Positions 31,551-51,917 of a DNA stretch of 64,000 nt are shown one piece after another. The stretch's first letter is position 1, and the number at the start of each line of letters is the position of its first letter. The DNA is taken from the IMG/VR virus record IMGVR_UViG_3300022661_000054. One strand, given 5' to 3'. The notes below the pieces were generated by a model. The model was not told where the DNA came from and did no database searches. It worked only from the letters and a program-made list of their open reading frames with translations. The DNA is from a virus. Taxonomy: Duplodnaviria > Heunggongvirae > Uroviricota > Caudoviricetes. A program made the position numbers and the translations under genes.

Positions 31551-31825
31551 CCAAACAGACCTCCAAATAGGTTATTAAATGGTACAGGGTTTCTTGAAGT
31601 GTGGTCTTTTTCGTCCCACTCATACGCCGGACAGTACTCAAAAAGTTTGCCTTCTGGAATTTCCTTGCCAAGCTTACAATTAAACTTAGTTATCTTATTT
31701 TCAGCATGTTTACAGGTATGACAAGATCGTTTTGTATAATTGTTAATGCACTCTGCCTCGTGTTTTGTAAGTTCTTCTTCCGTGCCAATTTTATCACAAT
31801 ATTCACATCTAAACAACGGTTTCAT
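31547..31825 (-). CDS. Cys-rich zinc-binding hypothetical protein
   Basis: CEYC..HEAEC..CHTCKH..C. Confidence 0.65.
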   Translation of the reverse strand: MKPLFRCEYCDKIGTEEELTKHEAECINNYTKRSCHTCKHAENKITKFNCKLGKEIPEGKLFEYCPAYEWDEKDHTSRNPVPFNNLFGGLFG

Positions 31826-36583: not shown

Positions 36584-36593
36584 ATGTACCTCC

Positions 36594-36860
36594 TTAATTA
36601 TATTTTTCAGCTCGTTTCTTTCTTACTTCTTCATTAAATTGCTGTACAGTTTTATTATTAAAAGTTAACGTTGGGATAATCACTTTTTGCTGATATGTTT
36701 TATTAAACCAGCCAAAGTCCCAACCAAAATCAACTAAATCTTTATAAGGCTCGCGACCACTCCATAAGCAATCTAAACAATATGGAGCCATTTGATTTGT
36801 TAAAGTATTTTTATGTTCTTCAACATCACTACCAGCTCTACCACATACACAACAATTCAT
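36594..36860 (-). CDS. Small zinc-binding protein
   Basis: CCVC...CLDC. Confidence 0.6.
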   Translation of the reverse strand: MNCCVCGRAGSDVEEHKNTLTNQMAPYCLDCLWSGREPYKDLVDFGWDFGWFNKTYQQKVIIPTLTFNNKTVQQFNEEVRKKRAEKYN

Positions 36861-36861
36861 A

Positions 36862-37656
36862 TTAATTCTCCGTCCAGTATTTAGTTAGGATATCTACTAA
36901 AATACAGTCCATTCTGTTACAAGTATCTTCAGCTACCTTACGTTCATTAGTATCTATATAAGCCTGCTTTCTAGCTTTAGCATAGTCAACAGCTTCTTTT
37001 GCAATAGCTTTTGCTTGATCTAAATCATATCTATAATTAGCTTTTACACTAATTAAGTATTCACGGTCGTATGGAATTAGACAATCTTTGTATAATACAC
37101 CATCAATGTATCTGTCAAGAAATTCTCTACATCTAATAATATGGTGAAGCTGTTTATTATCATATCCATACTTATCAATCTTGTCTTTTAACGTAGGATA
37201 AGGATGACACAAAGCAGCGTTCTTCTCTAAGATCATACCGACGATACAATTTACAGCAGCATAATTATCAATGTGTGCGATATCCTCATTAATTCTAAGC
37301 ATCTCGAGCCAAAAATAAAAGTAGTCGCGCGGTACGTAAAAGAACTCAGTAAATAAAATCTCAAGGTAGTTTACGTTCTGCTTCTTAAAACATTGCCACA
37401 TAAGTCTAATATCTTTTAAATCAATGTGTGAATTGTCTTCTAATATAAGAGTAGTACTTGTAGGCTGCTTATTTAAAATAAGGTCTTCAGCGGAAGGCAG
37501 AACAATGCACTTTGTATCGATATCACTGCCTTCATAATCCAACTGATAATTCTGTGAGCCTTGCAAAAATATGCCAAAAACTTCATATCCTTGATTTTTC
37601 ACATAATTATAATCGTGCTTTAGTCTTTCACAAATCTTAAGTTCTCTTTCAGTCAT
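36862..37656 (-). CDS. Pol-beta-superfamily nucleotidyltransferase (RlaP/YcgL-like)
   Basis: LQGSQNYQLDYEGSDIDTK (GS...DxD), KQNVNYLEILF, KQLHHIIR. Confidence 0.75.
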   Translation of the reverse strand: MTERELKICERLKHDYNYVKNQGYEVFGIFLQGSQNYQLDYEGSDIDTKCIVLPSAEDLILNKQPTSTTLILEDNSHIDLKDIRLMWQCFKKQNVNYLEILFTEFFYVPRDYFYFWLEMLRINEDIAHIDNYAAVNCIVGMILEKNAALCHPYPTLKDKIDKYGYDNKQLHHIIRCREFLDRYIDGVLYKDCLIPYDREYLISVKANYRYDLDQAKAIAKEAVDYAKARKQAYIDTNERKVAEDTCNRMDCILVDILTKYWTEN

Positions 37657-37813
37657 TTAAAAACCTCCAAATATGCTTAGGACGGCGCTCATAAGAGCCC
37701 TTTCCCTTTTTGTTCTCAAGCTTGAAGCCACGTTTTTTGAAATACATGTAGAGTTCAAGTTCTTCAGGTGATTTTTTAAACATTCTTCTATCAATAGATG
37801 CTTCCTTTTTCAT
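37649..37813 (-). CDS. ArfA-like alternative ribosome-rescue factor (54 aa)
   Basis: Manually translated: MKKEASIDRRMFKKSPEELELYMYFKKRGFKLENKKGKGSYERRPKHIWRFLND; KKGKGSY.R..KH motif; SD GGAGGA; below the ORF-track cutoff. Confidence 0.65.
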   Translation of the reverse strand: MKKEASIDRRMFKKSPEELELYMYFKKRGFKLENKKGKGSYERRPKHIWRFLND

Positions 37814-37903
37814 AATAAAGTCCTCCAATTTTTATATCAATAATATATAATACAACAAAATAAAAAGAAAGTTGGCATAATTAACCAACTTTCTTTAAAA
37901 CCA

Positions 37904-38134
37904 TTATTCTTTTACTTCAACAAGCTCAAAAGTAACAAGCTCCAATGGGCCTTCGTATTTAGTTCTAAAATAACGCATAGAACCATTACCAGATAATTTA
38001 TCATTATACTCATCAATTGCTTTCTGGCAATTTCCACGCTTTTCCCAAAACTTATGTCCAGGGTTGGTAATATCTCTTACGAGCTTACCTGTCGAAGCAT
38101 CACGCACTGCATATAAATAATTTTTATTATTCAT
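37904..38134 (-). CDS. Hypothetical protein
   Basis: MNNKNYLYAVRD..., coupled to the upstream gene. Confidence 0.6.
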   Translation of the reverse strand: MNNKNYLYAVRDASTGKLVRDITNPGHKFWEKRGNCQKAIDEYNDKLSGNGSMRYFRTKYEGPLELVTFELVEVKE

Positions 38135-38402
38135 TACAAACACTATATCCTTTAACTTCATGGAAACCACATTTAATAAACTTATTAATATCATGAATGT
38201 AAATAGGTTTATCATAGCTCTCAATCGGGCACGCATACAATTCGTCATAAGACATTAAATTAAGTCCAGTAATACCATAACCATATGCACGCTCTCGCAT
38301 AGCAGTCGTATCCTCACAAATAAGAATACCATCTTCAGCTTTTACTCGCTCAATCAAAGTTTTAGTTTTACCAATACCTTTACCACCACTAAGAATAAAC
38401 AT
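38127..38402 (-). CDS. Small P-loop-containing protein
   Basis: GGKGIGKT at the N-terminus. Confidence 0.55.
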   Translation of the reverse strand: MFILSGGKGIGKTKTLIERVKAEDGILICEDTTAMRERAYGYGITGLNLMSYDELYACPIESYDKPIYIHDINKFIKCGFHEVKGYSVCNE

Positions 38403-38443
38403 TTTTAAATACCTTCCTTATATTTAATTTATTTTATTATGTA

Positions 38444-38884
38444 TTATTGATTTTCTATTTTGCCGCCTCTTGACATGTTTGCTACTTTTTCATTATGAAT
38501 ATCTAAGGCTTCCTTGAGAGTACACTCTTCAAAAGGCAACACCTTATAAAAGCTAGGCTGTTCTCCTATCTCTTTCAGCCATTCTTTAACAATAGGTGCG
38601 ATTCGTTCATTTAAAAGATCTAACTGTTCTCTTTTAGCGCTGTCAAGCCAACCGTCAGAAGCTTCACCGACTTCATCCCAAGCATCTTCACAAAGTCTTT
38701 CGACAATATCTTGAGCAAAGTCATAATTGACCTCATAGTTTTCAATAAGACCAAGAGCGAAAGTATCTTCTAACTTATATTCTTCCCATTGAGCTTCCTC
38801 TACACACTCTCGTATCGAGTCACACGGTCCACCCCGCCAAATTTCATCGTCACTTCTTCGCGACCAAGCATATTTGTTTGCCAT
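38444..38884 (-). CDS. Hypothetical protein
   Basis: 146-aa ORF with SD GAGG and an upstream promoter motif. Confidence 0.7.
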   Translation of the reverse strand: MANKYAWSRRSDDEIWRGGPCDSIRECVEEAQWEEYKLEDTFALGLIENYEVNYDFAQDIVERLCEDAWDEVGEASDGWLDSAKREQLDLLNERIAPIVKEWLKEIGEQPSFYKVLPFEECTLKEALDIHNEKVANMSRGGKIENQ

Positions 38885-38957
38885 ACTAACACCTCAATAA
38901 GTTATTCTATAATATAATACACTATAAAGAATGAAAAAATAAAGCTGGTTATAAAAA

Positions 38958-39290
38958 TTAACCAGCTTTTTCTACTAAATAATCGTATAAAGCTTCAGGA
39001 GTAGTGAGGTCTTTTTCATATTTTACTCCATCAGCTTCACACCAGATCTTCTTATCAACATTTTCCCAAAGCCACCAACTAATTACTGAACCATATTTTC
39101 TATTAGGCAAATCATTCATGCCGAACTCAAGAACTTTTATTAGCTGGTCTAGCCACTCCTGCCCTACATTACAAATAAAAAACGAATCACAAACTTCAGT
39201 TACAGCTTTTTCAAACTTTGAACGGCGTTTATAGCCGTCTTTAATCTTATTTAAAGTCTCGATAAAAACTTCTTTACTAAAAGCAACCAT
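38958..39290 (-). CDS. Hypothetical protein
   Basis: ISWWLWE...TPEALYDYL, a common phage family pattern. Confidence 0.65.
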   Translation of the reverse strand: MVAFSKEVFIETLNKIKDGYKRRSKFEKAVTEVCDSFFICNVGQEWLDQLIKVLEFGMNDLPNRKYGSVISWWLWENVDKKIWCEADGVKYEKDLTTPEALYDYLVEKAG

Positions 39291-39291
39291 G

Positions 39292-40083
39292 TTAATTATC
39301 GCCTCCAATAAAATTATCATCTAAAACTAGTACGTTAACTTCACCAGTATGTGCAGTACAGCGATCAATGCCGATGATTCCTTGAGATTCGTTAAAGTAC
39401 GGATCCCACTTGGCATCATCACCAAACTCTGATAGCTCACCTTGACTATCGCATAAATGACCTAAAGAACAATGCCAATGTCCGAATACGATTGTCTTAC
39501 CGGTTTTGTTCATACCGTCTTGTGCTTTCCAGAAAGGATTACCCCACATAGCTTCTTCCCACTCTACCTCGGAAGCATTACGCCAGTTCTCATTGTATTC
39601 GTAGTATTTTCCAACCTGGTGCCAAGGCTTACTAGCACCTTTATCATAATGAGTAATAGTAGGAATCCAACTATGAACAAAAATATACTTTTCAGTTTCA
39701 AAATAGTTTACAAGTAGGTCGCGATACGCTGCCGTTTTATTCAAAGCTGTATCACAGCACTTAGCAAAATCCGCCGGAAGAGGACTTCCACCGAGGTCTT
39801 GAACAGTTCTTACAGTGCCATTAGACTTATCGTGGCTATATGGAAAACATCTTGCGCAAAGATCGTCAAAAAGTAGGTCATGATTACCTTTTACTAGAAT
39901 CTTTCGCTCAAGCGACATTAAATAGTGCAACAATTCAATACTATTAGGACCCCTATCAAAGCAATCGCCGCACGAAATCAGCCAGTGTTCTTCGTTATTA
40001 GGGTCAAAACCTGCTCTGTCTAAAGCATTTTTAAGTGGTTCTAAGAAACTGTGAATATCAGAAACAACAAAAAGCTTAGGCAT
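39292..40083 (-). CDS. Calcineurin-like metallophosphoesterase
   Basis: SDIHS, GDCFDRG, GNHD, FVHS, FGHWH, IDRC. Confidence 0.9.
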   Translation of the reverse strand: MPKLFVVSDIHSFLEPLKNALDRAGFDPNNEEHWLISCGDCFDRGPNSIELLHYLMSLERKILVKGNHDLLFDDLCARCFPYSHDKSNGTVRTVQDLGGSPLPADFAKCCDTALNKTAAYRDLLVNYFETEKYIFVHSWIPTITHYDKGASKPWHQVGKYYEYNENWRNASEVEWEEAMWGNPFWKAQDGMNKTGKTIVFGHWHCSLGHLCDSQGELSEFGDDAKWDPYFNESQGIIGIDRCTAHTGEVNVLVLDDNFIGGDN

Positions 40084-40938
40084 TTATTTATCTCCTTCTG
40101 AGTAAACCCACCGTTCAATGTAGTATCTATCTTGAGTAAAAATGGGAATTTCTTTATCGATTACCCATTCACTTCTCATACAGCGAGTCTCTTCTTTTGT
40201 TTTAAAATCAATACAAATATCTTCTTTTTCTACACGATTACAGCAGACACCACGTTTAAACTCAGTAGGCATATCATTAAAATTGATACCTCTCTGAGTC
40301 ATTAACATATCTTGAATGTCATTGCAAGACTTACCGTGTAGTTCCTTATGAGAGAAGTTGCACTGACCAAGCATCTGAATTGCGTTGCGAGTAGCATCCT
40401 GCTGACGCCAGATGAAGCAGTTGGTAACTTCTTCTTTAGGAATGTTAAAACAGCGAGAATCAAACATTGCACCATTGTCAATAGCCTTCTTTAATGTATT
40501 AGCATATTTCTCAACATCTTCTTCCCAATAATGGTTTACCCATACATCAGACTGTAAATAATTATCAATTAATTCTCTAAGATACTTATTGAAAACCATT
40601 GTTGCCATGCTTGCTGACACGCTGCACATTTTCTGCACATTATAACCAAACCAAGCATCGGTATCAAGAGTGTCATAGTCTGTGAGAAGAAGAGTGATTT
40701 CGTCTGACTGTGTATAACCAAGCTTACAACCCTGGATATTCTCACAGAGATACTTCATAGTCGCATTCATAGTATTGTGGAAAATCTCGTCATAAGGCCT
40801 CTTAAGACCTTTAGTGAAGGTGTGGAAAGCTTTGCCGTCAAGTCTAATGATTACAGGAACTCGTCTAGGTAGATAATGTTTACTCCTATTTTCATAGAAT
40901 TCTTTCATTCTATCACCAAGTGCATCTTTAGTACTCAT
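40084..40938 (-). CDS. Thg1-like 3'-5' nucleotidyltransferase (tRNA-His guanylyltransferase family)
   Basis: IIRLDGKAFHTFTK...KPYD-like, GYTQSDEITL, FDSRCF, WRQQDATRN. Confidence 0.9.
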   Translation of the reverse strand: MSTKDALGDRMKEFYENRSKHYLPRRVPVIIRLDGKAFHTFTKGLKRPYDEIFHNTMNATMKYLCENIQGCKLGYTQSDEITLLLTDYDTLDTDAWFGYNVQKMCSVSASMATMVFNKYLRELIDNYLQSDVWVNHYWEEDVEKYANTLKKAIDNGAMFDSRCFNIPKEEVTNCFIWRQQDATRNAIQMLGQCNFSHKELHGKSCNDIQDMLMTQRGINFNDMPTEFKRGVCCNRVEKEDICIDFKTKEETRCMRSEWVIDKEIPIFTQDRYYIERWVYSEGDK

Positions 40939-41479
40939 ATTTTATACCTCCTGCTAGTATGCTTAATACAGTCTTAACTGCATAGTCATAACCTTCATTA
41001 TCGCCGTTAATTTCAAAATAATCAATACCAAGACCTTTATATAAATCTTTAATGCGGACACTTATACGATCACTTTCTTCTTCTGTCTGATTTCGGCCTT
41101 TAGGGTTGTAAGGTTTAACTCTGTTAATAAAGAAATTAATATTTTCATATGTATTATAAACATCCATGACTAACCTTGGATAAGACTCAGTTATTGCAGG
41201 ATTAGTATTATAAATAATACTAAGAGGAAGCGGGCTATCAGTCACAATCACATCGACATCATCTCGGCATCTACGTAATCTATAAGACTGTTTACCAAAC
41301 ACATATTCTTGACAACCTAGAGCCATAATATTATGCTCCCAGGTCTTATCTTTAGCAAATTCTGTTACAAGTTCTGCATTAACACCAGCTTTTTTAAGCT
41401 CTGCAAAAATAGTTGCTGCACCAGTGCTTTTTCCAGCACCTGGAGCTCCTGTTAAATTAACAACTAATGGTTTTTTCAT
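40928..41479 (-). CDS. P-loop kinase/ATPase (AAA_28/NadR-like)
   Basis: GAPGAGKST, VTEFAKD, VTDSPL, GRNQTEEES. Confidence 0.75.
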   Translation of the reverse strand: MKKPLVVNLTGAPGAGKSTGAATIFAELKKAGVNAELVTEFAKDKTWEHNIMALGCQEYVFGKQSYRLRRCRDDVDVIVTDSPLPLSIIYNTNPAITESYPRLVMDVYNTYENINFFINRVKPYNPKGRNQTEEESDRISVRIKDLYKGLGIDYFEINGDNEGYDYAVKTVLSILAGGIKYEY

Positions 41480-41644
41480 TTTAAATTCTCCCATACATAA
41501 TCGATAAAGATATTCCAATTCATCATTACTTGATCATAAACTTTTACTATAATATCATACAATAAAAAAAAGAAAGTTACTTATATCTAAGTAACTTTCT
41601 TAAAAAAAATCCTTGCAAAATAAACAAAGGAGGTACACCTTATA

Positions 41645-42290
41645 CATTCAAAGATAAATATAATACATTCCTAGGCCTTCGCCTTACCACTTGTTATATT
41701 CAAGTACATTCGGTCACATAGATGACAAGTCTGAGCTTCGGGGAGCGACCCCTAACTTCTTGCCACGAAATCTGGGTACTTGGTTAACGGCCAAGCCCTG
41801 GACTACATAAACTATGACAGGATTGATTACCTGCACCCCTCACCGTCTATTCAGAAAAAATTAATATCAGTATTCCTAATTATATACTAGCATTAATTCT
41901 TTGTTAATTGTCTTCGGCTACTAGGAGGTTACTTGAATCTCTTATACCCACATTTCTATGGTTCACGACAAATGAGATTATTGGCATTTCCAAGGTGTAA
42001 TACAGTCACCAACTAAACCCTAACTTGGATTCGGCTCAGCTATTAACCAAGCTTTCTATTACTCTCACGAGACTCTTCCTACCATTACTTGCTATAACAT
42101 CAGCACATACAACATATGTTTCGGGTCCTACCCTTAACTCATATACTCGCATATATAAGTAGCGCGGTTTCCGAGGTATCCCTCTTATGTTACCATCACA
42201 CATTGTTCAGCTTTCGCTTAGTTGCATTCTCAGCACAAGAAGCGTGTCTTGTGTTTAGCACTGAGTTAGTAATTATATTTATCTTTCAAG
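41645..42290 (-). ncRNA. Large structured ncRNA, ROOL-like (GOLLD not excluded)
   Basis: ~640-nt ORF-free region closed by a perfect 15-bp helix (41650-41664 with 42272-42286); own promoter at ~42310; many hairpins; 3' motifs GGGGUCGCUCCCC and CUCAGACUUGUC recalled from large phage ncRNAs; next to the tRNA array. Confidence 0.6.
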
Positions 42291-42369: not shown

Positions 42370-42445
42370 TGGTGGACCCAGCGAGGGTCGAACTCGCGAC
42401 CTCTAGTTTGCAGGACTAGTGCTCTCCCAATTGAGCTATGGGCCC
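42370..42445 (-). tRNA. tRNA-Ala(UGC)
   Basis: Cloverleaf, G3:U70, encoded CCA; loop CC-UGC-AA (C at 33). Confidence 0.9.
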
Positions 42446-42518
42446 ATATCTTAGCCCTGGGTTAATTACGTCCAGAACTAAAACACATTTGCAAATCTTT
42501 GTGCTTGTTAACAGCACT

Positions 42519-42564
42519 CGGTGCCCGCGGTAGGATTCGAACCCACTCAACGCCATAACGGGCA
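42519..42564 (-). ncRNA. tRNA top-half minihelix (acceptor + T arm only)
   Basis: TGCCCGT-11 nt-GTGGG TTCGAAT CCTAC-C-GCGGGCA-CCG. Confidence 0.55.
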
Positions 42565-42673
42565 TATATAAATATGACTGACTCGGCCGGTTAGGAAACT
42601 GTACACCGCAAGTTCTTTAGCTATCACTTTTCGCCTCGCTACCTAAGCATTAACGCCAGTCATATTCAACAAA

Positions 42674-43345
42674 TTAATCTTTCAAGTATCTCCATATAAA
42701 GCCATAAGCAGTTTTTCGTTTACCTTTGCAAACCTCTAGAATGTGAGCTCTAATTGCGCCGCCTTTAGCATCAGAAATACCACTATCTCGAATCCACTGC
42801 TCAGCTTCATAAGAATTAGTAACACTATGAATTAAATTATTTTTTAAATCATAAATATTTATTGGTTTACTATAAAGCTCTTTTACTAAATCCGGGCTAG
42901 ACTTAACTTGAATATTAGCAGCTTTAGCAATATCGATAATTGTGTCTTTTGTGCACTTAAAAACTTCTGCAGCATCCTTAACACAATTATTATTACGTAA
43001 ATACTGAATAATCGCGCGTCTATCATAAAGCATCTTGCTTCCGCCACCCAAAGTAGCGTTATAACCAGGACCAAGCGGATCTTTACAAAAAGTATGAAAT
43101 TTCGTAATCCAATAAATTTCTCGGTCATTTAAAAGCTCTGGATCATCAGCTAGTTCTTCAACAACTTCTATAGTAAAAGCTGAATAACCATACTTTAACA
43201 TAGCTTTGTACAGAGGTCTTTTACTGTGACCAGTTCTAGCGCTGTCTTTTAAATGCTCTGCAAACCTTTTTTCTAATGAATAAAGTGTTTGACCTATGTA
43301 AGCCTTGCCATTAAGATTATTTGTAATTTTATAAATATAAGCCAT
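42674..43345 (-). CDS. Free-standing GIY-YIG homing endonuclease (Seg-like, NUMOD1-type C-terminus)
   Basis: MAYIYKITN...YIGQT...RFAEH...LNDREIYWI...GYNATLGG; C-terminal ILEVCKGKRKTAYGFIWRY. Confidence 0.9.
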   Translation of the reverse strand: MAYIYKITNNLNGKAYIGQTLYSLEKRFAEHLKDSARTGHSKRPLYKAMLKYGYSAFTIEVVEELADDPELLNDREIYWITKFHTFCKDPLGPGYNATLGGGSKMLYDRRAIIQYLRNNNCVKDAAEVFKCTKDTIIDIAKAANIQVKSSPDLVKELYSKPINIYDLKNNLIHSVTNSYEAEQWIRDSGISDAKGGAIRAHILEVCKGKRKTAYGFIWRYLKD

Positions 43346-43463
43346 AAGAATCACCTAGTTAGTAACTTAGTAGCAGCTGCATTACTAACTAGGTTACTTA
43401 TTTATTGGACAATTCAGTTTAATTAACAACTCACACCACGTGAAGGTATGTCCATTGTGAGTC

Positions 43464-43536
43464 AGCTGGTTGACGGACTTGAACCCCCGACCTGCTCATT
43501 ACAAGTGAGCTGCTCTACCAACTGAGCTAAACCAGC
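43464..43536 (-). tRNA. tRNA-Thr(UGU)
   Basis: Cloverleaf, loop CU-UGU-AA; no encoded CCA; one T-stem mismatch. Confidence 0.85.
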
Positions 43537-43745
43537 ATATAAGAGGGACTGTTATGCAGGTCTCAACCCTCGCCTACACCATGATTAAAAAGAGCTCATG
43601 ATTGCTTCTTATAAACACGATTCGTTTCGAGTTTTAACCGGGTCAAAACGCTTCGTAGATAAGTCTACCGTACCTCTAAGCTCCCGCATATTTTCTAAAT
43701 GTTTATTTGTATAAGGTCGTATGAAAATACCTAACAGTAGACCTT

Positions 43746-43890
43746 TGGCGACTCCGATCGGGATCGAACCGACGACCTCCTGCGTGTGGAGCCTTATACT
43801 AGTCTTGCACTAGCATCTCTTTATAAGAGTGTTTTACTATTAAACTAATAAAGCACAGGCAGGCGTTCTAACCATCTGAACTACGGAGCC
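43746..43890 (-). tRNA. tRNA-Asp(GUC) interrupted in the anticodon by a nested tRNA-like element
   Basis: GGCTCCG/CGGAGTC G CCA; anticodon stem CCTGC/GCAGG; loop CTGT|C AC after removing 43787-43854. Confidence 0.8.
43787..43854 (-). ncRNA. Nested tRNA-like element (68 nt, CCA end)
   Basis: GCTTTAT/ATAAGGC T CCA acceptor; D-like GTTT..AAAC; stunted CTCTT-ATA-AAGAG; T arm GCTAG TGCAAGA CTAGT. Confidence 0.75.
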
Positions 43891-44121
43891 ATATGGTAGC
43901 ATGGCTGAGTTTTTTAAGGTTACCTCAAGCGTTGCTAACTGTTCATCCTATCTATATTAAACCTCTCATTCCTCAACCAAAGTTCTTACTCTTGGAATGT
44001 TGACCCGCTCACACCTTGGTGAAACGATTGATGCATCAATTTGTCTTCTGTTATAGGTCGATTACCGTAGCCTTGGATTGCATAGATAATGCGCATTAAT
44101 GCTATAACAAAGAAGCTTAAA

Positions 44122-44208
44122 AGACAAATACTAGACTCGAACTAGTTCCTGACAATCCAATCCCGTTGATAGGGCATTCTGTCTTATGCTACCTTACACC
44201 AATTTGCC
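44122..44208 (-). ncRNA. tRNA-like element with expanded anticodon loop
   Basis: GGCAAAT/ATTTGTC acceptor, D arm GTG..CAT, T arm ACTAG TTCGAGT CTAGT; GACA/TGTC stem encloses ~25 nt; no CCA. Confidence 0.55.
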
Positions 44209-44352
44209 ATATAGCTACAGTGCATTGCCGATGCTTTGTATCACATTGCTGTAGTACCAACGCTTAGTTCGCATAACTTCCTGCGAACTGCCGTTACGCT
44301 CATTTACCGCTGAGCCGTGCGTACTTGTGTTGGCAAGGTACAAGCGAACCTT

Positions 44353-44427
44353 TGGAGGCGGGGGAAGGATTCGAACCTTCGACACCTGACTTATGAGGAC
44401 AGTGAGCTACCTCTGCTCTACCCCGCG
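44353..44427 (-). tRNA. tRNA-Met(CAU), initiator-like body
   Basis: CGCGGGG with C1:C72 mismatch, GAGC/GCTC D stem, loop CU-CAU-AA, CCA; lacks the 3 G:C anticodon-stem pairs. Confidence 0.8.
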
Positions 44428-44987
44428 ATATATTTTATAATGTAGTTTATTCTCTTACCCTTTTATTTCACTACTTGCCTGCTTATCCACAGTAATATAA
44501 ATTACCTGATACGAGTTTCTCAAGGGTACAGGCTATAACTGATTTTATCGTTGTCTGCCAACTATCTTATTCCTTAATAAGCAAATTTGGGAGCATTTAT
44601 CGTTTGCCCAAACATTTTAGTCTTTACACCAAAATTCTATGTTTCAGATTACCACATTGTCAGCACAATGACCATTAAGGATTTTGTTAAGGGATATGTT
44701 CCCTTACTCGATGGACCAGGGTCTTTCAACCAGCCCTATCAAATAGGTGAACTCGCACAACAGTTCACAGTAGATATCACCACATAGACATCTTTACCTC
44801 ACATAGTTAACACTATGATTTTTGATAAAGCGGTAACCAGCCACACCCATGCTTCCTTCACTACTTAACTTCTGGTTTCATAGCTCGCATGTGCCCTTAC
44901 TATTTGATATTTGTGGGGCTTTATACCCACTCGTTTCTTAAAACGACAAGCACATAGTTATTCAACGGTAACTCTACGAAACCCACC

Positions 44988-45063
44988 TGGCTCCTCGTGG
45001 TGGACTCGAACCACCGACATACGGATTAACAGTCCGCCGTTCTACCTACTGGACTAACGAGGA
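44988..45063 (-). tRNA. tRNA-Asn(GUU)
   Basis: Cloverleaf TCCTCGT/ACGAGGA G CCA, loop CU-GUU-AA. Confidence 0.93.
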
Positions 45064-45170
45064 ATATAAAATCAATTACAAAAATACAAGCAGTGCAAGC
45101 ACCGGTTGTCTAAAACTTCATTGACATTGTTTTATGCTGCAATATAATTTAGCTAATAAAATAAACTAAA

Positions 45171-45296
45171 TTATTTATTTTTCGCTAACTCTTTACGAAG
45201 CTGTCTCTGAAGCTTTTTAATAATGCTGTTATTATCTCGATCACGACCTGACAAAAGTGCAATACGATTTTCAAAATACTGTGCGTCTCTAGTCAT
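45171..45296 (-). CDS. Small basic hypothetical protein (41 aa)
   Basis: MTRDAQYFENRIALL... with SD GGAG; the longer track ORF reads through tRNA-Ser. Confidence 0.5.
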   Translation of the reverse strand: MTRDAQYFENRIALLSGRDRDNNSIIKKLQRQLRKELAKNK

Positions 45297-45322
45297 AAAA
45301 ACAACTCCCTTAAATTTAATCG

Positions 45323-45411
45323 TGGCGGAGAGGGTGGGATTCGAACCCACGGACCCTTTCGGGTCGACGGTTTTCAAGACCGTTCCGTTATAACCACTTC
45401 GGTACCTCTCC
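45323..45411 (-). tRNA. tRNA-Ser(UGA)
   Basis: Class II cloverleaf with GACCC-GAAA-GGGTC variable arm, G73, CCA. Confidence 0.95.
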
Positions 45412-45523
45412 ATATATTTAAAAGGCTTCTCACCTATTTGGTATATCCGGTATACTTTCAACCGGCTATGTCGATATATACTTACCGCTATTTACCACCC
45501 ATACAATAGTAGGTTTATGTATT

Positions 45524-45856
45524 TTAAAGCTCCGACTTTTCGTCTACAAATAAGTTATCATAGAGCTTTTTAACATCCTGCTCAAACTGATTAAACTTCT
45601 TATCGAGACTCTTATAGTAGTTTTTCAATAGTTTATCTTTAACTACCTGTTTACCAACCTCAACATCGAACTCATCATCAGGATGACATACAGTAGAAGA
45701 CTTAAAACTTGTTGGCATTAAGTAGCTAGTCCAAGTACAACCAAGTGAAGTACCTTCTAATTTCTTTTGAATAGCAAGAACTGCATCAAATTCTGTATTT
45801 TCCAAAATACCTACAGTCATTTTCTTTTCTGGAATAGTAATATACTTAATAGCCAT
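45524..45856 (-). CDS. Hypothetical protein
   Basis: 110 aa; CHPDDEFDVEVGK motif common in phage proteins; SD GGAG. Confidence 0.7.
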   Translation of the reverse strand: MAIKYITIPEKKMTVGILENTEFDAVLAIQKKLEGTSLGCTWTSYLMPTSFKSSTVCHPDDEFDVEVGKQVVKDKLLKNYYKSLDKKFNQFEQDVKKLYDNLFVDEKSEL

Positions 45857-45890
45857 TTTTAATTCTCCATTGTTTCTTTAGTATAAATTA

Positions 45891-45977
45891 TGGTGCACCT
45901 GGTGGGACTCGAACCCACAAGACCTTTCGATCACTACCCCCTCAAGATAGCGCGTTTGCCAATTTCGCCACAAGTGC
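45891..45977 (-). tRNA. tRNA-Leu(GAG)
   Basis: Class II cloverleaf, loop UU-GAG-GG, A73, CCA. Confidence 0.9.
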
Positions 45978-46208
45978 GTATAAATAATACTTTTACATAA
46001 TAGAATAAATTCCATCCAGGTTCATAGCCTTTCATACCAGACTACCGTAGTTTCCTTAACGGTCGAACCGTTAAATTTTTAAGGTCTCGCATAATGCCAG
46101 TAGCACGTCATTACAGCTGATTACGTCACTAAAACCTATTCTGTTATGTCATTTTCATTCTTTTTGAGGGCAAGCAAACCGCTCAAATCAGTAGGAGCTA
46201 CCTACAAG

Positions 46209-46285
46209 TGGAGCAACACACGAGACTCGAACTCGTACCATCTGCTTGGAAGGCAGAGATGCTAGCCATTAAACACCAGTGCTGC
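46209..46285 (-). tRNA. tRNA-Gly(UCC)
   Basis: Loop CU-UCC-AA, U73, CCA. Confidence 0.93.
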
Positions 46286-46548
46286 ATGTTATACAGTGTT
46301 GACCCCGATAGCTCTCACAGCTAAAAGTCACTCCACACACTGGGCTACCACTAATTGCGGCTTCTTTACTGACTCGTAGGCACTGTACATATAAATAGGT
46401 TAAGGATTCCCTAGAACCACACATCTCGCCTCTCTTGACCTGCTTTCAACTACTAATAACGTTTTCAATCTATATGCGCAGCAAGATTTACTTAGTAATT
46501 ACTTTCATTTAAGCACTAGGGCTGGCGGACATTTGCTCTCTGCCCTTC

Positions 46549-46624
46549 TGGTCTAAGTGACAGGACTCGAACCTGCGGCATCTTGATCCCAAATCAAGCA
46601 TTCTACCAACTGAATTACACCTAG
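46549..46624 (-). tRNA. tRNA-Pro(UGG)
   Basis: Loop UU-UGG-GA, CCA. Confidence 0.93.
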
Positions 46625-46732
46625 ATTTTTGGCGAAGTTAAGGTCCCTCAACCGCGAATCTCGTTACGATAATAATCTAAGCCGGCTGATTACTACCTCT
46701 GACCCAACGACTATTTGCTACAAACGGCAACG

Positions 46733-46818
46733 TGGTGGAAAGAGATGGAGTCGAACCACCCGAGCCTGAGGCAACAGATTTACAGTCTGCCCCGCTACCA
46801 CTTACGGTATATCTTTCC
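46733..46818 (-). tRNA. tRNA-Tyr(GUA)
   Basis: Loop CU-GUA-AA, long variable arm, A73, CCA; slightly atypical D region. Confidence 0.88.
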
Positions 46819-46831
46819 ATATAAAATAAAA

Positions 46832-46937
46832 CAGATGAGGTTGGAGTTGCACCAACGAAACTGTATAACCCACATGTATACTAAGGTTAATCAGTAGAGA
46901 TTACGGTCCCTTACTTTGACTTCTTGTATACTCATCT
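46832..46937 (-). ncRNA. tRNA-like element with non-canonical expanded core
   Basis: Perfect acceptor AGATGAG/CTCATCT stacked on T arm GTTGG TGCAACT CCAAC; ~75-nt middle has no normal D or anticodon arm. Confidence 0.5.
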
Positions 46938-47148
46938 AAAAAATTAATTTACAGGACCGGTTTCCTTATCCTATTTTCGGAAGTAAATTAATTCCGCTAC
47001 TTACACTTTAGATTAAGTTATTGACCCCAAACTTAGATGAACAAGCAGTAAGAACTATAAGGGGGAAAGTTTTATAGATAAATCACTTTCAAAACTCTCC
47101 ACTTTCGTAGGAACACGTGGTAGCCTTGTACAGAGGGGCTCAACCTCT

Positions 47149-47246
47149 TGGACACGACAGCAGGACTTGAACCTACTTATCTTCAAGAAATCAATCTTGG
47201 TCTTTTTCCTGGGATTCGGATGCTTTACCACATAAGCTATATCGTG
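47149..47246 (-). ncRNA. tRNA-like element with aberrant anticodon/variable region
   Basis: CACGATA/TGTCGTG T CCA, good D arm GCTT..AAGC, T arm GTAGG TTCAAGT CCTGC; no assignable anticodon. Confidence 0.6.
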
Positions 47247-47256
47247 ATATTAGGTT

Positions 47257-47332
47257 TGGTGCGCCATCCGCGGCTCGAACGCGGGACCTAAGCATTAAAA
47301 GTGCTTTGCTCTTCCTACTGAGCTAATGGCGC
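47257..47332 (-). tRNA. tRNA-Lys(UUU)
   Basis: Loop CU-UUU-AA, CCA. Confidence 0.93.
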
Positions 47333-47365
47333 ATATATAAAGCGGTAACTATACCGCATTGTTTT

Positions 47366-47420
47366 TGGTTGCGGACACAAGGTTCATGAGGCCTTGACTT
47401 TCTAGAAAGATTCCGTCCGC
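47366..47420 (-). ncRNA. CCA-ended mini-tRNA lacking anticodon arm
   Basis: GCGGAC/GTCCGC..ACCA, internal hairpin CTTTC-TA-GAAAG, T-like CAAGG/CCTTG. Confidence 0.5.
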
Positions 47421-47507
47421 GTGCCAGGCGGGAGTTTGATTTATTATTATATCTTTCCCGTTCGCCGACTCCTTTAACGGTCTGGACTTTCGGTTAATGG
47501 TACCATT

Positions 47508-47590
47508 TGGTGCGGGCGACAGGACTTGAACCTGCACGCTTTTGGCAATAGATCCTAAATCTATCGTGTCTGCCATTCCACCACGCCCGC
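47508..47590 (-). tRNA. tRNA-Leu(UAG)
   Basis: Class II cloverleaf, loop UU-UAG-GA, CCA. Confidence 0.93.
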
Positions 47591-47774
47591 ATATTAAATG
47601 ACTTATCTACATCACACTAATGAATAAGTCTGATTCTGTATTTTACTTCTTGCAGAATACCATTGAAGGCTTTTTCGTCCATACATTGTAGTGTGTTGTA
47701 CTTTCGGAGTTTCGCGTCTCTCAGGAGATTTTGACGTTCTTGCAAAAACATCTTGGCTTATCTCTTAACCTTGT

Positions 47775-47846
47775 GGAAGTGAGTTAGAGTCGAACTAACC
47801 TCAGTGCCTACACTTTTTGTCAGCCTTATGAGTCCCTTTTCACTTC
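47775..47846 (-). ncRNA. Degenerate tRNA-like element
   Basis: GAAGTGA/TCACTTC acceptor + GTTAG TTCGACT CTAAC T arm; middle not canonical. Confidence 0.5.
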
Positions 47847-47977
47847 ATATTTAATTACATATTTATTATACGATACGAATTTATATATTTTAACAAATTT
47901 TATAAATATTTTAAGCATAAAAAATGACGCTTAAATGAATTTAATCATTATAAGCGTCACTAGATTATCGAGTATTT

Positions 47978-48094
47978 TTACTCACTGAATAACCAATGAC
48001 GCCACTCTGGTGGTCTTGAATAATCAAATTTAGGCATAGCTCCGCCAGCTGTTTTAATTAGTGAATTATAATTAAAATTAACTGACTTTTTCAT
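47978..48094 (-). CDS. 38-aa peptide
   Basis: MKKSVNFNYNSLIKTAGGAMPKFDYSRPPEWRHWLFSE, SD AGGAG, preceded by GCTAAATTA. Confidence 0.4.
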   Translation of the reverse strand: MKKSVNFNYNSLIKTAGGAMPKFDYSRPPEWRHWLFSE

Positions 48095-48491
48095 AGCTAA
48101 TATCTCCTTAAATTATTTTTATTCTATATCTAATTTAGCGTATAATCTAAATTAGAATTTTAAAAATTGCCAAGCTCTTTCTCTCAAGTCTTGTCGGGCT
48201 TTCACCGTTTGGACTTTGTTGCTTTGTATCATATGTATCATTGAAAGGGGAATGCATATGATTAATAAAGCTATTCACAAAACAATGGTAAAAATTACCA
48301 TGTAATATTATACAGTAAAAAATTTAAATATTTTATAAAAATCTTATTTTTTCTGTAAATTAATTTATGTAATATAGCCAACTCATAGATAGCTGGCTAT
48401 AATATTCTTATAAATTAAATTCTTAGCTTGACACTCATTCTTAAATATGTTTTACTATTTTTAATACTTGTTAAACATATCTGTCTTTTTC

Positions 48492-49256
48492 TTACTTCAC
48501 GAAATACTGTAATGCTTTTGTAGCATTTTGTTGTCTCACGCCATAAGATCCAGACCCACATCTCTCATAATATTTTGCAAAATACAATGCTGCTTCTTTT
48601 TCATCTTGCATATTATAGAAAGAATTGCCTTTCGGAATTACTTCAAACAATTCAACAGATAAAAACCTTATCTGGTCTTCAAGTGTTGTGCCAAAATCAT
48701 TTAGAAGTCTTTGTTTCCTACTGCCAGCCCACTGACAAATACCATAATAAGTTTTTTGACTATACTGAGGCCATCTTGAAATATCAAGCGTTTGACCACC
48801 AACTTCTGCCATAATATTACCCATGATACCTGCACACACGTAATCATTAAGACCTAAAGCTTTTAATGATTTCCATACCTTAGTAGCCTGGTTATAATTA
48901 CCATCAGCCTTAAAAGAATTTGAAACTATCTGCTTCTGTTGTGAAACGACCTTCTTAGTTTCCTGTAATTCTTTTTTAAGCTCTTGGATTTGTGCGTCCT
49001 TGTCAAGAAGGACTTTCTCATTCTCAACAAGTGTCTCTTCTTGCTCAGACACTTTTGTTTCTAACTCTTCATTTTGTTTTCTTAAAGAATCAAGTTCTGT
49101 TTGTAATACCGATACTTCTTCTTTATATGAAGATCTGTGACTAGTAAAACTAATAGCTTGTATAGCTACTATAATCACAAGTGCAATAATTGTGCACGTT
49201 TTTATAAGATTACTGTAGTTTTTCAGATACTTCAGCATCTTAAAAATAATACTCAT
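48492..49256 (-). CDS. Membrane-anchored coiled-coil protein with phage-tail-type lysozyme domain
   Basis: N-terminal TM, coiled coil, CAGIMGNIMAE...GICQW...QIRFL..EL...FAKYYER. Confidence 0.75.
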   Translation of the reverse strand: MSIIFKMLKYLKNYSNLIKTCTIIALVIIVAIQAISFTSHRSSYKEEVSVLQTELDSLRKQNEELETKVSEQEETLVENEKVLLDKDAQIQELKKELQETKKVVSQQKQIVSNSFKADGNYNQATKVWKSLKALGLNDYVCAGIMGNIMAEVGGQTLDISRWPQYSQKTYYGICQWAGSRKQRLLNDFGTTLEDQIRFLSVELFEVIPKGNSFYNMQDEKEAALYFAKYYERCGSGSYGVRQQNATKALQYFVK

Positions 49257-49637
49257 TATTTACTCCCTTCGATACATAAAGATATTAGAATTTTATTGAC
49301 TGTACTAATATTATACAGTACAAAACATCTTTATGTCGCAGCAGAGCATCAAGAATTTATTTAAGAATTTATTTTATAAAGAAAAAGATTTATGAGTAAC
49401 TCGTTCTGCAGTTGAGTCGACCCCTTGACTGACATAAATCAAATCAGGTTAGGCTTTTGTTTATGTAGTATCACATCTACTCTGGTCGGTCCAGATTAAG
49501 GGAAACCTTTATCTCTTTACCCTTCATAGAAACCAGTCATACGTTTAAGATTTGTGTGACTAACACCGTACGCTCCGATTACGTTAAGCTTCGATCCATT
49601 TGTGTGATTTTTAAATATCAGGAAGGATGTCCTTATG

Positions 49638-49710
49638 TTACGGTTGTAGGATTTGAACCTATACTTCCGACCAAAAGGCCGGCGTTCTATCCAATTAAAC
49701 TATCTCCGCA
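49638..49710 (-). pseudogene. Degenerate tRNA (undetermined)
   Basis: D arm GTT..AAC, T arm ATAGG TTCAAAT CCTAC, broken acceptor, anticodon hairpin CCGGCC-TTTT-GGTCGG. Confidence 0.45.
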
Positions 49711-50058
49711 TATATAGTTAAAAAATAATATAAGCTTTCTTACTCTACGCCTAGACACTATTTTCACTTACGACCATGTATTTAGCACTCTCCATACGGG
49801 GACGTGCATGGTATGATAAATTACTAAGTTGGTCTGCGTAGCCACTCCTCATCCTGGACCCGATTCTTGCTTACTAACCCGTTAGGTACCTCTTGTGAAG
49901 GTCGGCGTTCAGTCTCACCACTGTAACACAAGTCAGCGGGAATCTCTCGTGGTACCGATCATTTTTTCAGCCTTTACTTCTTCCACCACAGTTCGGGGGC
50001 CCTTTGGCATTGCTTCGTCTCTTAAGTGTACTCTGCCGCCTCAGAAAGATTATATTAA

Positions 50059-50132
50059 TGGCAGGCCGCCAAGGATTTGAACCCTGACCAACTGGGTTGG
50101 AGCCAGTCATGCTACCGTTACACCAACGACCT
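50059..50132 (-). tRNA. tRNA-Trp(CCA)
   Basis: AGGTCGT/GCGGCCT G CCA, loop CU-CCA-AC. Confidence 0.92.
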
Positions 50133-50344
50133 ATAAAATTCACCGTGGACTACTTACATTGTTCACCAGATTACCAGTGTAGCATCCTTTAACAATACGT
50201 TTATCTTTTATCAATAAAGCACTACCAGTATCAATACAGGGGCACGGCTACTCTACTCCCTGGTGACGATTAGCTGATTCTCACGTCCAACGATATTCCC
50301 GCCCCAGTCCACCCAGTGGGAACTTATTAAAATACTATATAGCA

Positions 50345-50416
50345 CTACGCTTACGGACTCGAACCGTGTCTCCCAACAGATTAGGTCAGGTGTTTTACCA
50401 GTTAAACTATTACGCA
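50345..50416 (-). pseudogene. Degenerate tRNA (undetermined)
   Basis: D arm GTTT..AAAC and TTCGAGT T loop; acceptor and anticodon stems mispaired. Confidence 0.4.
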
Positions 50417-50614
50417 GATATTATCTAGTTCGTGCTATCCAAGACTTTTTACCACATTTAGGACATTTTGTTCTTCTATAGTCTTTCATTCGGAAAAACA
50501 CAAATTCATGAAAAGGAGCTTTCAAGATCCATTTCCAATAATTAGATTCCCATTCGTGATTACATTCTGGGCACTGTAACTTTACCTTCATAAAGTACCT
50601 CTAAATAAATAATT

Positions 50615-50704
50615 TGGCGGAGGAGGGGAGATTCGAACTCCCGCACCCTTTCGGGCCTAACGCGTTAGCAGTGCGTCCTCTTCGACCAGCTTGAGTACTC
50701 CTCC
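50615..50704 (-). tRNA. tRNA-Ser(GCU)
   Basis: Class II cloverleaf, loop CU-GCU-AA, G73, CCA. Confidence 0.95.
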
Positions 50705-50711
50705 ACAATTT

Positions 50712-50788
50712 TGGCTGGGCAGGCTGGACTCGAACCAGCGAAATGACGGAGTCAAAGTCCGTTGCCTTACCGACTTGGCTACTGCCCA
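50712..50788 (-). tRNA. tRNA-Gln(UUG)
   Basis: TGGGCAG/CTGCCCA G CCA, loop CU-UUG-AC. Confidence 0.95.
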
Positions 50789-50941
50789 ATAAATAAAAGT
50801 TATTTTAATTTATATTTTCATTTAAACCTTGCCCGCGGCACTGTGACCATATGAATAAACTACTTCTATAAATTAAGGTTACTATCCTATGGAATGGGCA
50901 TTTTTCTGCTGGGGAACCTTATCCACTAATTATAACCCCTG

Positions 50942-51093
50942 TGGTGACGCGTACGGGAATCGAACCCGTGATACCGCCGTTGGTGCTAGATGTCAGACTC
51001 GAACTGACACATAACCTCTATCTCTAGTGGCCTGCCTTACCTTTTGGCTAATCTAACGAAAGGGCGGTGTCTTAACCGCTTGACCAACGCGCC
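50942..51093 (-). tRNA. tRNA-Glu(UUC) interrupted after position 36 by a nested tRNA-like element
   Basis: GGCGCGT/ACGCGTC A CCA; stem CCGCC/GGCGG; loop CTTTC|AC after removing 50981-51057. Confidence 0.8.
50981..51057 (-). ncRNA. Nested tRNA-like element (77 nt, CCA end)
   Basis: GTTAGAT/ATCTAGC A CCA; D arm GCC-AAAAGGTAA-GGC; T arm GTCAG TTCGAGT CTGAC; degenerate anticodon arm. Confidence 0.8.
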
Positions 51094-51161
51094 ATATGTA
51101 ACGAAGGTTGCTTTTTTCATAGAAGAGTGTGCTACATCGTTACCTCTAAATTCTCACTCTT

Positions 51162-51249
51162 TGGTACGCCATCGAGGAGTCGAACCTCGCAATCCCGAAG
51201 ATTACCGTGGTGTATAAGACCAGTGCCCTCACCGCTGAGCTAATGGCGT
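51162..51249 (-). tRNA. tRNA-Ile(UAU) with long variable arm
   Basis: Loop CU-UAU-AC, variable hairpin TAATC-TTCG-GGATTG, A73, CCA. Confidence 0.8.
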
Positions 51250-51254
51250 ATATA

Positions 51255-51331
51255 TGGTGGACCATCTAGGACTCGAACCTAGGACCGACCGGTTATGAGC
51301 CGGGAGCTCTAACCAACTGAGCTAATGGTCC
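51255..51331 (-). tRNA. tRNA-Ile2(CAU, lysidine type)
   Basis: GGACCAT TA GCTCAGTTGGTTAGAGC..CTCATAACCG..GGTCC A CCA resembles Bacillota tRNA-Ile2. Confidence 0.85.
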
Positions 51332-51414
51332 ATAAACTAGTTTATGCACTTAAAACTAGCAAAACGGTCGTTTCTATTTAACCCATTCAACAGAAACTGA
51401 AAAACATAAAGGTC

Positions 51415-51553
51415 TGGTGCGGGATATCGGACTTGAACCGATACGGTATCACTACCGAGGGATTTTTGGTACTTGATGTAGGTACTGCCCCTACTAGATA
51501 GACACTATGTCATCAAGCAAGTCCCTTGCGTCTGCCTATTCCGCCAATCCCGC
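51415..51553 (-). tRNA. tRNA-Leu(UAA) interrupted between positions 34/35 by a nested mini-tRNA
   Basis: GCGGGAT/ATCCCGC A CCA, Leu-type D loop and long variable arm; stem AGGGA/TCCCT; loop CTT|AAAA after removing 51467-51518. Confidence 0.8.
51467..51518 (-). ncRNA. Nested mini-tRNA (52 nt, CCA end)
   Basis: GCTTGAT/ATCAAGT A CCA; hairpin GACA-TAG-TGTC; T-like arm GTAGG GGCAGTA CCTAC. Confidence 0.75.
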
Positions 51554-51561
51554 ATATAAAG

Positions 51562-51619
51562 GCCAAGCTAAATTCATTTAAAAGATGATCGCTATTCAGC
51601 AGAAATAAGCATTGGCTCT
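51562..51619 (-). ncRNA. Y-RNA-like small RNA, copy 1
   Basis: AGA GCCAA-U-GCU UAUUUCU ... AGC-UUGGC; own promoter at ~51630. Confidence 0.7.
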
Positions 51620-51842
51620 ATGCGTTATATTATACAATCTAATTACTTAAAATTTATAGTGTTTTAAAAAAATTTTAAAAATATTTTTTCCGCTAAAGGA
51701 CTCTCACCTTTAGGAGCAAGGGTTGGCTTCGCGTTTGCAACCACTTCCAACGGTCTTTCTTCTATCATTAACTCTTGTGACCAGCATCTAATTCGTTTAC
51801 CTTGCTTTTTCATATCTAAATACTTTTAAGAGTTTTTCTTTT

Positions 51843-51917
51843 TGGTCGGCAACATTCGGAATTGAACCGCCACCCAGCCCAACACTCGGCCGTGTTCTAC
51901 CATTAAACTATTATGCC
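51843..51917 (-). pseudogene. Degenerate tRNA (GUG in an 8-nt loop, His-like?)
   Basis: D arm GTT..AAC, TTCAATT T loop, CCA, mispaired acceptor. Confidence 0.45.

Follow-up and report, generated by a model that had tools for sequence, protein, structure and literature searches.

Here, we describe three tRNA genes of a tailed phage (IMG/VR record IMGVR_UViG_3300022661_000054) that are interrupted within the anticodon loop by inserts which are themselves shaped like tRNAs. The stretch of DNA that we analysed, referred to as the window, comprises 64,000 nucleotides (nt) of a phage genome of ~220 kb. Coordinates are window positions unless a contig is named; the tRNA genes of the window are all encoded by the minus strand, in the stretch from 42370 to 51553. 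The nested arrangement in these three genes is confirmed as real and non-random. The inserts are best explained as tRNA-shaped introns of a diverse and probably mobile class in large phages, and they represent a rare and barely described type of phage intron. The interrupted genes are organized as follows, with each insertion site given by the two tRNA positions that flank it.

43746-43890, minus strand: interrupted tRNA-Asp(GUC); 5' exon 43890-43855, insert 43854-43787 (68 nt), 3' exon 43786-43746; site 35/36
50942-51093, minus strand: interrupted tRNA-Glu(UUC); 5' exon 51093-51058, insert 51057-50981 (77 nt), 3' exon 50980-50942; site 36/37
51415-51553, minus strand: interrupted tRNA-Leu(UAA); 5' exon 51553-51519, insert 51518-51467 (52 nt), 3' exon 51466-51415; site 34/35

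In all three genes, direct reading and scripted cutting show that the insert starts at base 1 of a 7-bp acceptor stem and terminates in N-CCA. Since the bases flanking the junction differ at each site, these boundaries cannot be shifted. The cloverleaf stems of the outer exons are perfect, and removal of the span from base 1 to CCA restores, in 3/3 genes, a 7-nt anticodon loop with an anticodon that matches the tRNA body: CUGUCAC for Asp, CUUUCAC for Glu and CUUAAAA for Leu. Rfam tRNA matches of abnormal span extend over whole interrupted genes at 43749-43890 (50.5 bits) and 50945-51093 (49.5 bits). With default settings, ARAGORN calls no Asp, Glu or Leu(UAA) tRNA in the window; in intron mode, it calls all three genes, with introns of 68, 77 and 52 nt. 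Two of them are labelled His and SeC in that mode because ARAGORN sets the intron one base off, and we rejected these labels, as the tRNA bodies and the G73/A73 discriminators fit Asp and Glu. The initial annotation of this DNA had described intact outer arms around an anticodon-loop insert, which direct reading, Rfam and the intron mode of ARAGORN all bear out. Its account of the insert ends, lengths and sites was correct in every detail, and the three restored loops that it gave are likewise confirmed.

The tRNA island has no Asp, Glu or Leu(UAA) tRNA other than these three, and the codons served by the interrupted genes are among the commonest of the phage (per 1000 codons: GAA 53, GAU and GAC together 70, UUA 30).

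Each insert has the shape of a reduced tRNA, although the three differ in how much of the cloverleaf they retain:

43787-43854, minus strand: Asp inner element, 68 nt; 7-bp acceptor, D arm, shrunken anticodon arm, T arm with the non-canonical loop UGCAAGA, U-CCA end
50981-51057, minus strand: Glu inner element, 77 nt; canonical D arm, T loop UUCGAGU, a mismatched GAGA-tetraloop hairpin in place of the anticodon arm, A-CCA end
51467-51518, minus strand: Leu inner minihelix, 52 nt; 7-bp acceptor, small hairpin, 5-bp T-like stem with the loop GGCAGUA, A-CCA end

Scanned alone, the Asp and Glu inserts reach 40.5 and 41.2 bits, respectively, with the cloverleaf model of the Rfam tRNA family (RF00005) and thereby exceed its gathering threshold of 29 bits; the Leu insert has no Rfam match. 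The anticodon stem of the Asp insert is short of three base pairs, and its T stem is fully paired (5/5). None of the three inserts has an anticodon arm capable of decoding (5-bp stem and 7-nt loop): the corresponding columns are deleted or replaced in the Rfam alignments, and the arm is absent in Leu. A T arm with a perfect 5-bp stem and a 7-nt loop stands at the exact tRNA position in all three, and the same geometry is found elsewhere in the window in the 15 tRNAs called by ARAGORN and in one chance match on the plus strand. The features that the inserts conserve are thus the acceptor/T minihelix and the NCCA end, with the anticodon arm degenerate or absent. In minimum-free-energy folds, the Glu precursor forms a double cloverleaf and the Leu precursor an outer cloverleaf with the inner acceptor helix.

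To measure how often such nesting would arise by chance, we used a nested-element test. Elements of 40-100 nt that end, after a 7-bp acceptor helix, in one further base and a specified 3-nt tail were removed, and ARAGORN was rerun on the joined flanks. An element passes if the flanks give a tRNA with the junction inside the anticodon loop, where eight junction positions are allowed. With CCA as the tail, 3 of the 83 candidates in the window pass, and these are exactly the Asp, Glu and Leu cases. Nine control tails were also run; eight give no passes, and the ninth (ACC) recovers only the Leu site, moved by one base.

That the inserts are assembly or chimera artefacts is extremely improbable. 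Many metagenomes from animal faeces and the bovine gut contain the region; seven DNA runs include at least 0.71 of its sampled words, and the run search also found small shares of these words in two cattle-gut metatranscriptomes. The lysozyme-like protein encoded within the island occurs in identical form on 24 contigs and an identical copy of its 665-aa neighbour on 22, and most of these contigs are longer than 200 kb. One of 220,267 bp, assembled from another sample, has exactly the spacing of the window between the genes for the 665-aa protein, the lysozyme-like protein and a GIY-YIG endonuclease, and therefore holds all three inserts. Two further contigs, L008 and L009, contain the junction between the Glu insert and its 3' exon at 100% identity. 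The one point in favour of an artefact is that base 1 of the Glu insert is the exact break point of both contigs, so that some ambiguity of the assembly graph must exist there; set against it are the runs, the identically spaced contig and the junction just mentioned, and the fact that three inserts unlike in sequence each have precise tRNA geometry. The initial annotation had argued that the inserts were due to neither chance nor assembly, and the control tails, the T-arm geometry, the second 220-kb contig and the L008 and L009 sequences all support this.

As regards these two contigs themselves, L008 (1-2704) is part of a JGI assembly and L009 (1-2687) of an ENA one, and the two assemblies may go back to the same reads. 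L008 and L009 begin at window position 51057 (minus strand) and match at 100% downstream. Their common start suggests a co-existing variant with the same insert and a different upstream sequence, in which case the boundary would be a point of recombination or polymorphism. A search of a metagenome contig collection with the Glu insert gave no matches, in a collection that evidently does not include the sample of L008.

Related islands were retrieved through the in-island lysozyme-like protein, which has more than 1000 homologues. In relatives whose lysozyme-like protein is 70-84% identical, gene order is kept and the Leu(UAA), Glu(UUC) and Asp(GUC) tRNAs are uninterrupted at syntenic places. 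Asp(gtc) is found in L002 and L004 at the syntenic Met-Asp-Thr-Ala-ROOL position, and in L010, L002, L004 and L006 Leu(taa) is either the leading tRNA of the island or the one after it. The spliced form of Glu aligns without gaps over the junction to L010 5468-5523 (94.6%) and L002 7945-8019 (89%), and its outer acceptor stem has a compensatory change from C6:G67 to G6:C67 relative to both. Among the relatives sampled, Rfam reveals no clearly interrupted tRNA (the longest match, in L004, is weak and spans 105 nt), and none passes the nested-element test. The initial annotation had proposed a search for intron-less orthologues in related phages, and these are present for all three tRNAs.

Because related islands carry the uninterrupted genes, the inserts are recent gains in this lineage. 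They were already non-decoding on arrival, and no tRNA of the window or of the relatives resembles them beyond a generic likeness to tRNA; a pre-existing family of insert elements thus fits better than the accidental capture of working tRNAs. Free-standing, CCA-ended tRNA-like genes also exist, at 47149-47246 in the window (minus strand), at 31527-31646 in G002 and at 12491-12609 in G004. They have normal acceptor, D and T arms and an anticodon region swollen to ~40-60 nt that lacks an anticodon loop, and they could form a pool related to the inserts.

Some tRNAs have been lost from the island: several that relatives keep are missing, including Val, Ile(GAU), Phe, Cys and two Arg, and no split versions of the missing tRNAs were found. 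Three further elements of the window differ from their counterparts in relatives. The tRNA-Ile(UAU) at 51162-51249 (minus strand) is 88 nt long and has an extra hairpin with a UUCG loop in its variable region, and the orthologues in L002 and L004 measure 75 nt. A tRNA-like element at 51850-51915 (minus strand) is 89% identical to a tRNA of a relative that ARAGORN labels 'Stop(tta)' (L013 6871-6940); it is not called by ARAGORN in the window, and its anticodon-loop region differs from that of L013. Finally, a weak tRNA at 50344-50417 (minus strand; 25 bits) has the anticodon AAU and no CCA and is an 88% orthologue of Val(AAC)/Val(GAC) in L145 and L010; its anticodon appears to have changed.

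The same design recurs in other phages. A pattern of inner T loop, CCA and outer T loop at nested spacing matches at least 118 loci in IMG/VR, and among the matches listed, the nested-element test yields five clean further cases in five unrelated contigs; control tails applied to the same listed matches give no passes. A sixth case shares its phage, of 239 kb, with one of the Gln cases, so that the further search proposed in the initial annotation has added six nested tRNAs from IMG/VR phages:

tRNA-Gln(UUG), two cases: insert after position 34
tRNA-Lys(UUU): insert after position 35
tRNA-Arg(UCU): insert after position 35
tRNA-Ile(UAU): insert after position 36
L135 7926-8000 (IMG/VR record G001), CUA amber-suppressor tRNA: 75-nt tRNA-shaped insert after position 35

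As in the window, removal from base 1 to CCA gives a 7-nt loop and an anticodon matching the body in all six. Across the nine inserts, the acceptor and T stems are paired throughout even though the sequences differ, and the anticodon arms are degenerate. Of the eight junction positions allowed by the test, only those after 34, 35 or 36 are used (9/9). The base preceding the insert is U in seven and C in two, and inner base 1 is G in seven and C in two. The T loops of the suppressor tRNA in G001 are non-canonical, and its insert has the loop GGCAGUA in common with the Leu insert of the window, on a stem that covaries. IMG/VR phage records with this design include some rated 100% complete by CheckV. 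In bacterial and archaeal genome contigs, a near-identical pattern matches at least 120 loci, with no nested tRNA among the matches listed. Patterns for the same-site junctions of Asp and Glu gave, in IMG/VR, one chance match inside a coding region and no match, respectively.

The island lies beside a dense set of tRNA-repair genes (35639-41518, minus strand), directly downstream of a ROOL RNA and the tRNAs, which we report as context only. The genes were identified with Pfam and PHROGs and the structured RNAs with Rfam:

35639-36583, minus strand: Pnk-HD (AAA_33 kinase and HD)
36862-37656, minus strand: nucleotidyltransferase
39292-40083, minus strand: metallophosphatase
40084-40938, minus strand: Thg1-like 3'-5' polymerase
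40928-41518, minus strand: AAA_28 NTPase
41653-42289, minus strand: ROOL RNA
42674-43354, minus strand: free-standing GIY-YIG (Seg-like) homing-endonuclease gene between tRNA-Thr and tRNA-Ala (PF01541, 1.1e-9; SegE_GIY-YIG)
44691-44737, minus strand: DUF3800-XI RNA

The GIY-YIG gene is located ~390 nt downstream of the interrupted Asp gene; in the relative L002, the Thr-Ala spacer is short and contains no called gene. The GIY-YIG gene is lineage-specific and possibly a partner in the mobility or protection of the introns. Where the window, L002 (15145-15583) and L004 have ROOL, the relative L006 has a GOLLD RNA (18585-19073), and the tRNA island of L002 also contains skipping-rope, drum and DUF3800-XI RNAs. 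An unannotated open reading frame (ORF) of 431 aa in the window has no match in PDB or Atlas, and the 665-aa neighbour protein has no relative in IMG/VR.

Since the inserts retain the acceptor/T minihelix and NCCA, which RNase P and 3'-end enzymes read, we propose tRNA end-processing enzymes as the agents that define the cuts. To the resulting model, in which a single precursor would be cut by RNase P at the inner 5' end and by an endonuclease after CCA and would then be sealed by an RNA ligase, we give roughly an even chance. The interrupted gene would be transcribed as one precursor and would fold as a tRNA within a tRNA. Guided by the inner acceptor/T minihelix and its NCCA, host RNase P would cleave at inner base 1 and free the 5' exon with a 3'-OH. 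A CCA-respecting endonuclease, of the RNase Z/BN type or another candidate, would cut right after the inner CCA and free the 3' exon with a 5'-phosphate. The exons, held together by the outer acceptor and anticodon stems, would then amount to a tRNA nicked inside its anticodon, and an ATP-dependent RNA ligase would close the nick, as T4 Rnl1 does for a nicked anticodon loop. Whereas anatomy, tRNA restoration, intron-less orthologues and recurrence are observed, we infer every enzymatic step and the ligation.

Cuts of the RNase P and RNase Z type yield 3'-OH and 5'-phosphate ends, on which ATP-dependent RNA ligases act, and consequently healing by Pnk-HD would not be needed; only a ligase would. 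The initial annotation had suggested that maturation nucleases excise the inner element and that a healing and ligation system encoded in the window joins the halves. The former suggestion fits the conserved minihelix and NCCA; the latter is not supported, as Pnk-HD would be superfluous under this chemistry and the window encodes no ligase.

Several points weigh against removal by this route. Its weak link is the cut exactly after CCA. The phage has Firmicute-type lysis genes, and its genes are open under the standard code; we know of no enzyme that makes this cut in a Firmicute-type host. Firmicute precursors that encode CCA are matured at the 3' end mainly by exonucleases, which would destroy the 3' exon, and few RNase Z enzymes, the one from Thermotoga maritima among them, are documented to cut exactly after CCA. 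No RNA ligase was found in the 64-kb window, either with Pfam and PHROGs on 37 ORFs or by tblastn with the ligase of the relatives. In favour of a sealing step, a match to the PF09414 RNA ligase family is present in 4/5 IMG/VR records with such introns (two of them over the Pfam cut-off) and in both IMG/VR relatives of this phage, and one ligase gene of this family in the phage lineage lies at L140 1462-2490. Relatives that lack the introns carry the ligase too, however, so that it is not specific to them. The ligase of the relative G006 has homologues too numerous to be traced to this phage. RtcB is absent from the IMG/VR records carrying such introns, and PF09511 (Rnl1) has no match in them, in a search that matched no control genome either. 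The minimum-free-energy fold of the Asp precursor lacks a complete inner acceptor stem, and the fold z-scores of the precursors are modest, from -1.1 to -2.7. Additionally, the inserts are absent in every relative sampled, so that there is no covariation within the lineage to show selection on them.

The main alternative splicing route is one in which a dedicated phage or host endonuclease would cut at the junction of helix and tail, leaving a 2',3'-cyclic phosphate and a 5'-OH that Pnk-HD and the metallophosphatase would heal before a ligase seals the exons. Such a route would resemble Trl1-type tRNA splicing in yeast and plants and Pnkp/Rnl1 repair in T4. In its favour, a complete healing set adjoins the island (AAA_33 kinase with HD, metallophosphatase and Thg1-like), no enzyme is known to cut after CCA in Firmicutes, and the inserts all lie at 34/35 to 36/37, where known anticodon nucleases cut. 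We nevertheless judge it unlikely: no candidate for the endonuclease was identified, and the retention of an acceptor/T minihelix in exact register with NCCA is left unexplained. The healing genes, moreover, are a common defence-repair kit of phages, and the AAA_28 gene at least also adjoins the islands of intron-less relatives.

The inserts might also not be spliced at all. The inner tRNA-like RNA and two stable tRNA halves could be the products, with the outer tRNA a mere scaffold; such products could distract or inhibit anticodon nucleases or other defence proteins that bind tRNA, in the manner of decoys. Two inserts score as tRNA alone, and the free-standing non-decoding genes described above (47149-47246 and those in G002 and G004) indicate that tRNA-shaped non-decoders appear to be products themselves. 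A free-standing gene would do as well, however, and the phage would forfeit its only island tRNA copies for three of its commonest codon sets; nor does selection for a scaffold explain an exact 7-nt loop and a matching anticodon in 9/9 cases. This explanation seems to us rather doubtful. We hold it very unlikely that the genes are dead, as recent pseudogenes bearing either the scars of a mobile tRNA-like element or a CCA-ended RNA that was misligated between anticodon-nuclease halves and copied into DNA. Misligation would be expected to give the boundaries of a mature RNA (base 1 to CCA) at anticodon-nuclease sites; the inserts are indeed recent and lineage-specific, and the island has lost several tRNAs that its relatives keep. 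Yet the exons are intact, and the phage, whose assembly is identical from many samples, would have had to fix three independent losses of tRNAs that it uses heavily. The inserts lacked anticodons on arrival and so were not captured working tRNAs, no source tRNA was found, no reverse transcriptase is known for this phage, and the same design is seen in phage records rated complete.

Returning to excision by tRNA-processing enzymes, we tentatively suggest, at somewhat less than even confidence, that these genes point to a third, protein-only form of phage tRNA splicing. The intron would be a minimal tRNA mimic excised by RNase P and a CCA-respecting endonuclease, a ligase would rejoin the anticodon, and the mimics would be mobile elements spreading among phage tRNA genes. 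They may make the gene resistant to homing endonucleases, or keep the anticodon out of reach of host anticodon nucleases up to the moment of ligation.

Should the exons indeed be rejoined, removal of this class of intron would require neither a ribozyme nor a dedicated splicing endonuclease, since tRNA mimicry and a ligase would suffice, and the bacterial world would gain its first example of tRNA splicing catalysed by enzymes. Phage tRNA islands, RNA repair enzymes and homing endonucleases would moreover be tied together in a single evolutionary arms race. As standard tRNA finders missed or mislabelled all three genes, phage tRNA sets, including recoding suppressor tRNAs, would then be under-counted, and such introns could hide recoding tRNAs from standard annotation. 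The window is well suited as a test case, since a single phage, which uses the standard code and is abundant in samples of cattle gut, offers three different inserts (52-77 nt).

The initial annotation had regarded the arrangement as undescribed, which is incorrect. 'Enigmatic' introns in the tRNAs of Lak megaphages, one of them predicted to encode a tRNA, were reported earlier (Devoto et al. 2019, Nat Microbiol; PMC6784885), and a 2026 survey of jumbo phages (PMC13037316) repeats that phage tRNA introns may encode tRNA. Neither paper gives a mechanism, and we found no report in the literature of the removal of such introns at the RNA level. Lak introns share with the inserts of the window the anticodon-loop position, an inner acceptor/T-arm element and the existence of intron-less alleles, and in the window removal restores the tRNA. 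In the Lak sequences (Table S6 of PMC6784885), however, a leader hairpin of ~30 nt precedes the inner element, no CCA is encoded, the intron ends near the discriminator base and the site is drawn at 37/38. The inserts described here start directly with inner base 1, have CCA as their end and interrupt the anticodon itself, at 34/35 to 36/37. Because of this start and this end, they are a variant distinct from the Lak introns, in a phage that is unrelated to the Lak phages and has Firmicute-type lysis genes and the standard code. The CCA-bounded form and its mechanism are undescribed, and the form is a distinct, cleaner variant of a phenomenon already in the literature. Lak-type introns were also seen in IMG/VR, in the tRNA-Gly(UCC) genes of L030 and L046 (79 and 92 nt); these have a leader hairpin and an acceptor/T minihelix, and their apparent terminal UCCA is the outer anticodon.

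Among established intron types, group I introns of bacterial, plastid and phage tRNAs have the same anticodon-loop target and are mobile and often linked to homing endonucleases. Those of tRNA-Leu(UAA) sit at 34/35, as the Leu insert of the window does. Group I introns (RF00028) are, however, self-splicing ribozymes of ~200 nt or more, and the inserts measure 52-77 nt; Rfam reveals no group I or II intron and no self-cleaving ribozyme in 43600-51700 at E <= 1. Archaeal and eukaryal tRNA introns, handled by EndA/Sen and RtcB or Trl1, likewise lie in the anticodon loop and are removed by proteins, with the exons ligated, as proposed here. In the window genes, reading and folding show no bulge-helix-bulge (two 3-nt bulges and a 4-bp helix); instead, one splice site coincides with the 5' end of a 7-bp helix, and the other is found 4 nt beyond the 3' end of that helix. 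The sites are not at 37/38, and recognition is proposed to act through the tRNA mimicry of the intron itself. The view that neither group I/II nor bulge-helix-bulge introns fit, put forward in the initial annotation, is thus upheld by the Rfam result, the size of the inserts and their geometry.

Excision of an embedded tRNA-shaped module by RNase P and RNase Z is familiar from mascRNA in MALAT1 and from mitochondrial tRNA punctuation. There, the flanks are never rejoined, whereas rejoining here would rebuild a tRNA. The closest parallel for the sealing step is T4, where PrrC cuts, Pnkp heals and Rnl1 seals, so that a ligase closes a tRNA nicked in its anticodon; the window, too, has repair genes beside its tRNA island. 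T4 repair answers damage inflicted by the host, whereas the process proposed for the window would remove an insert that the phage itself encodes.

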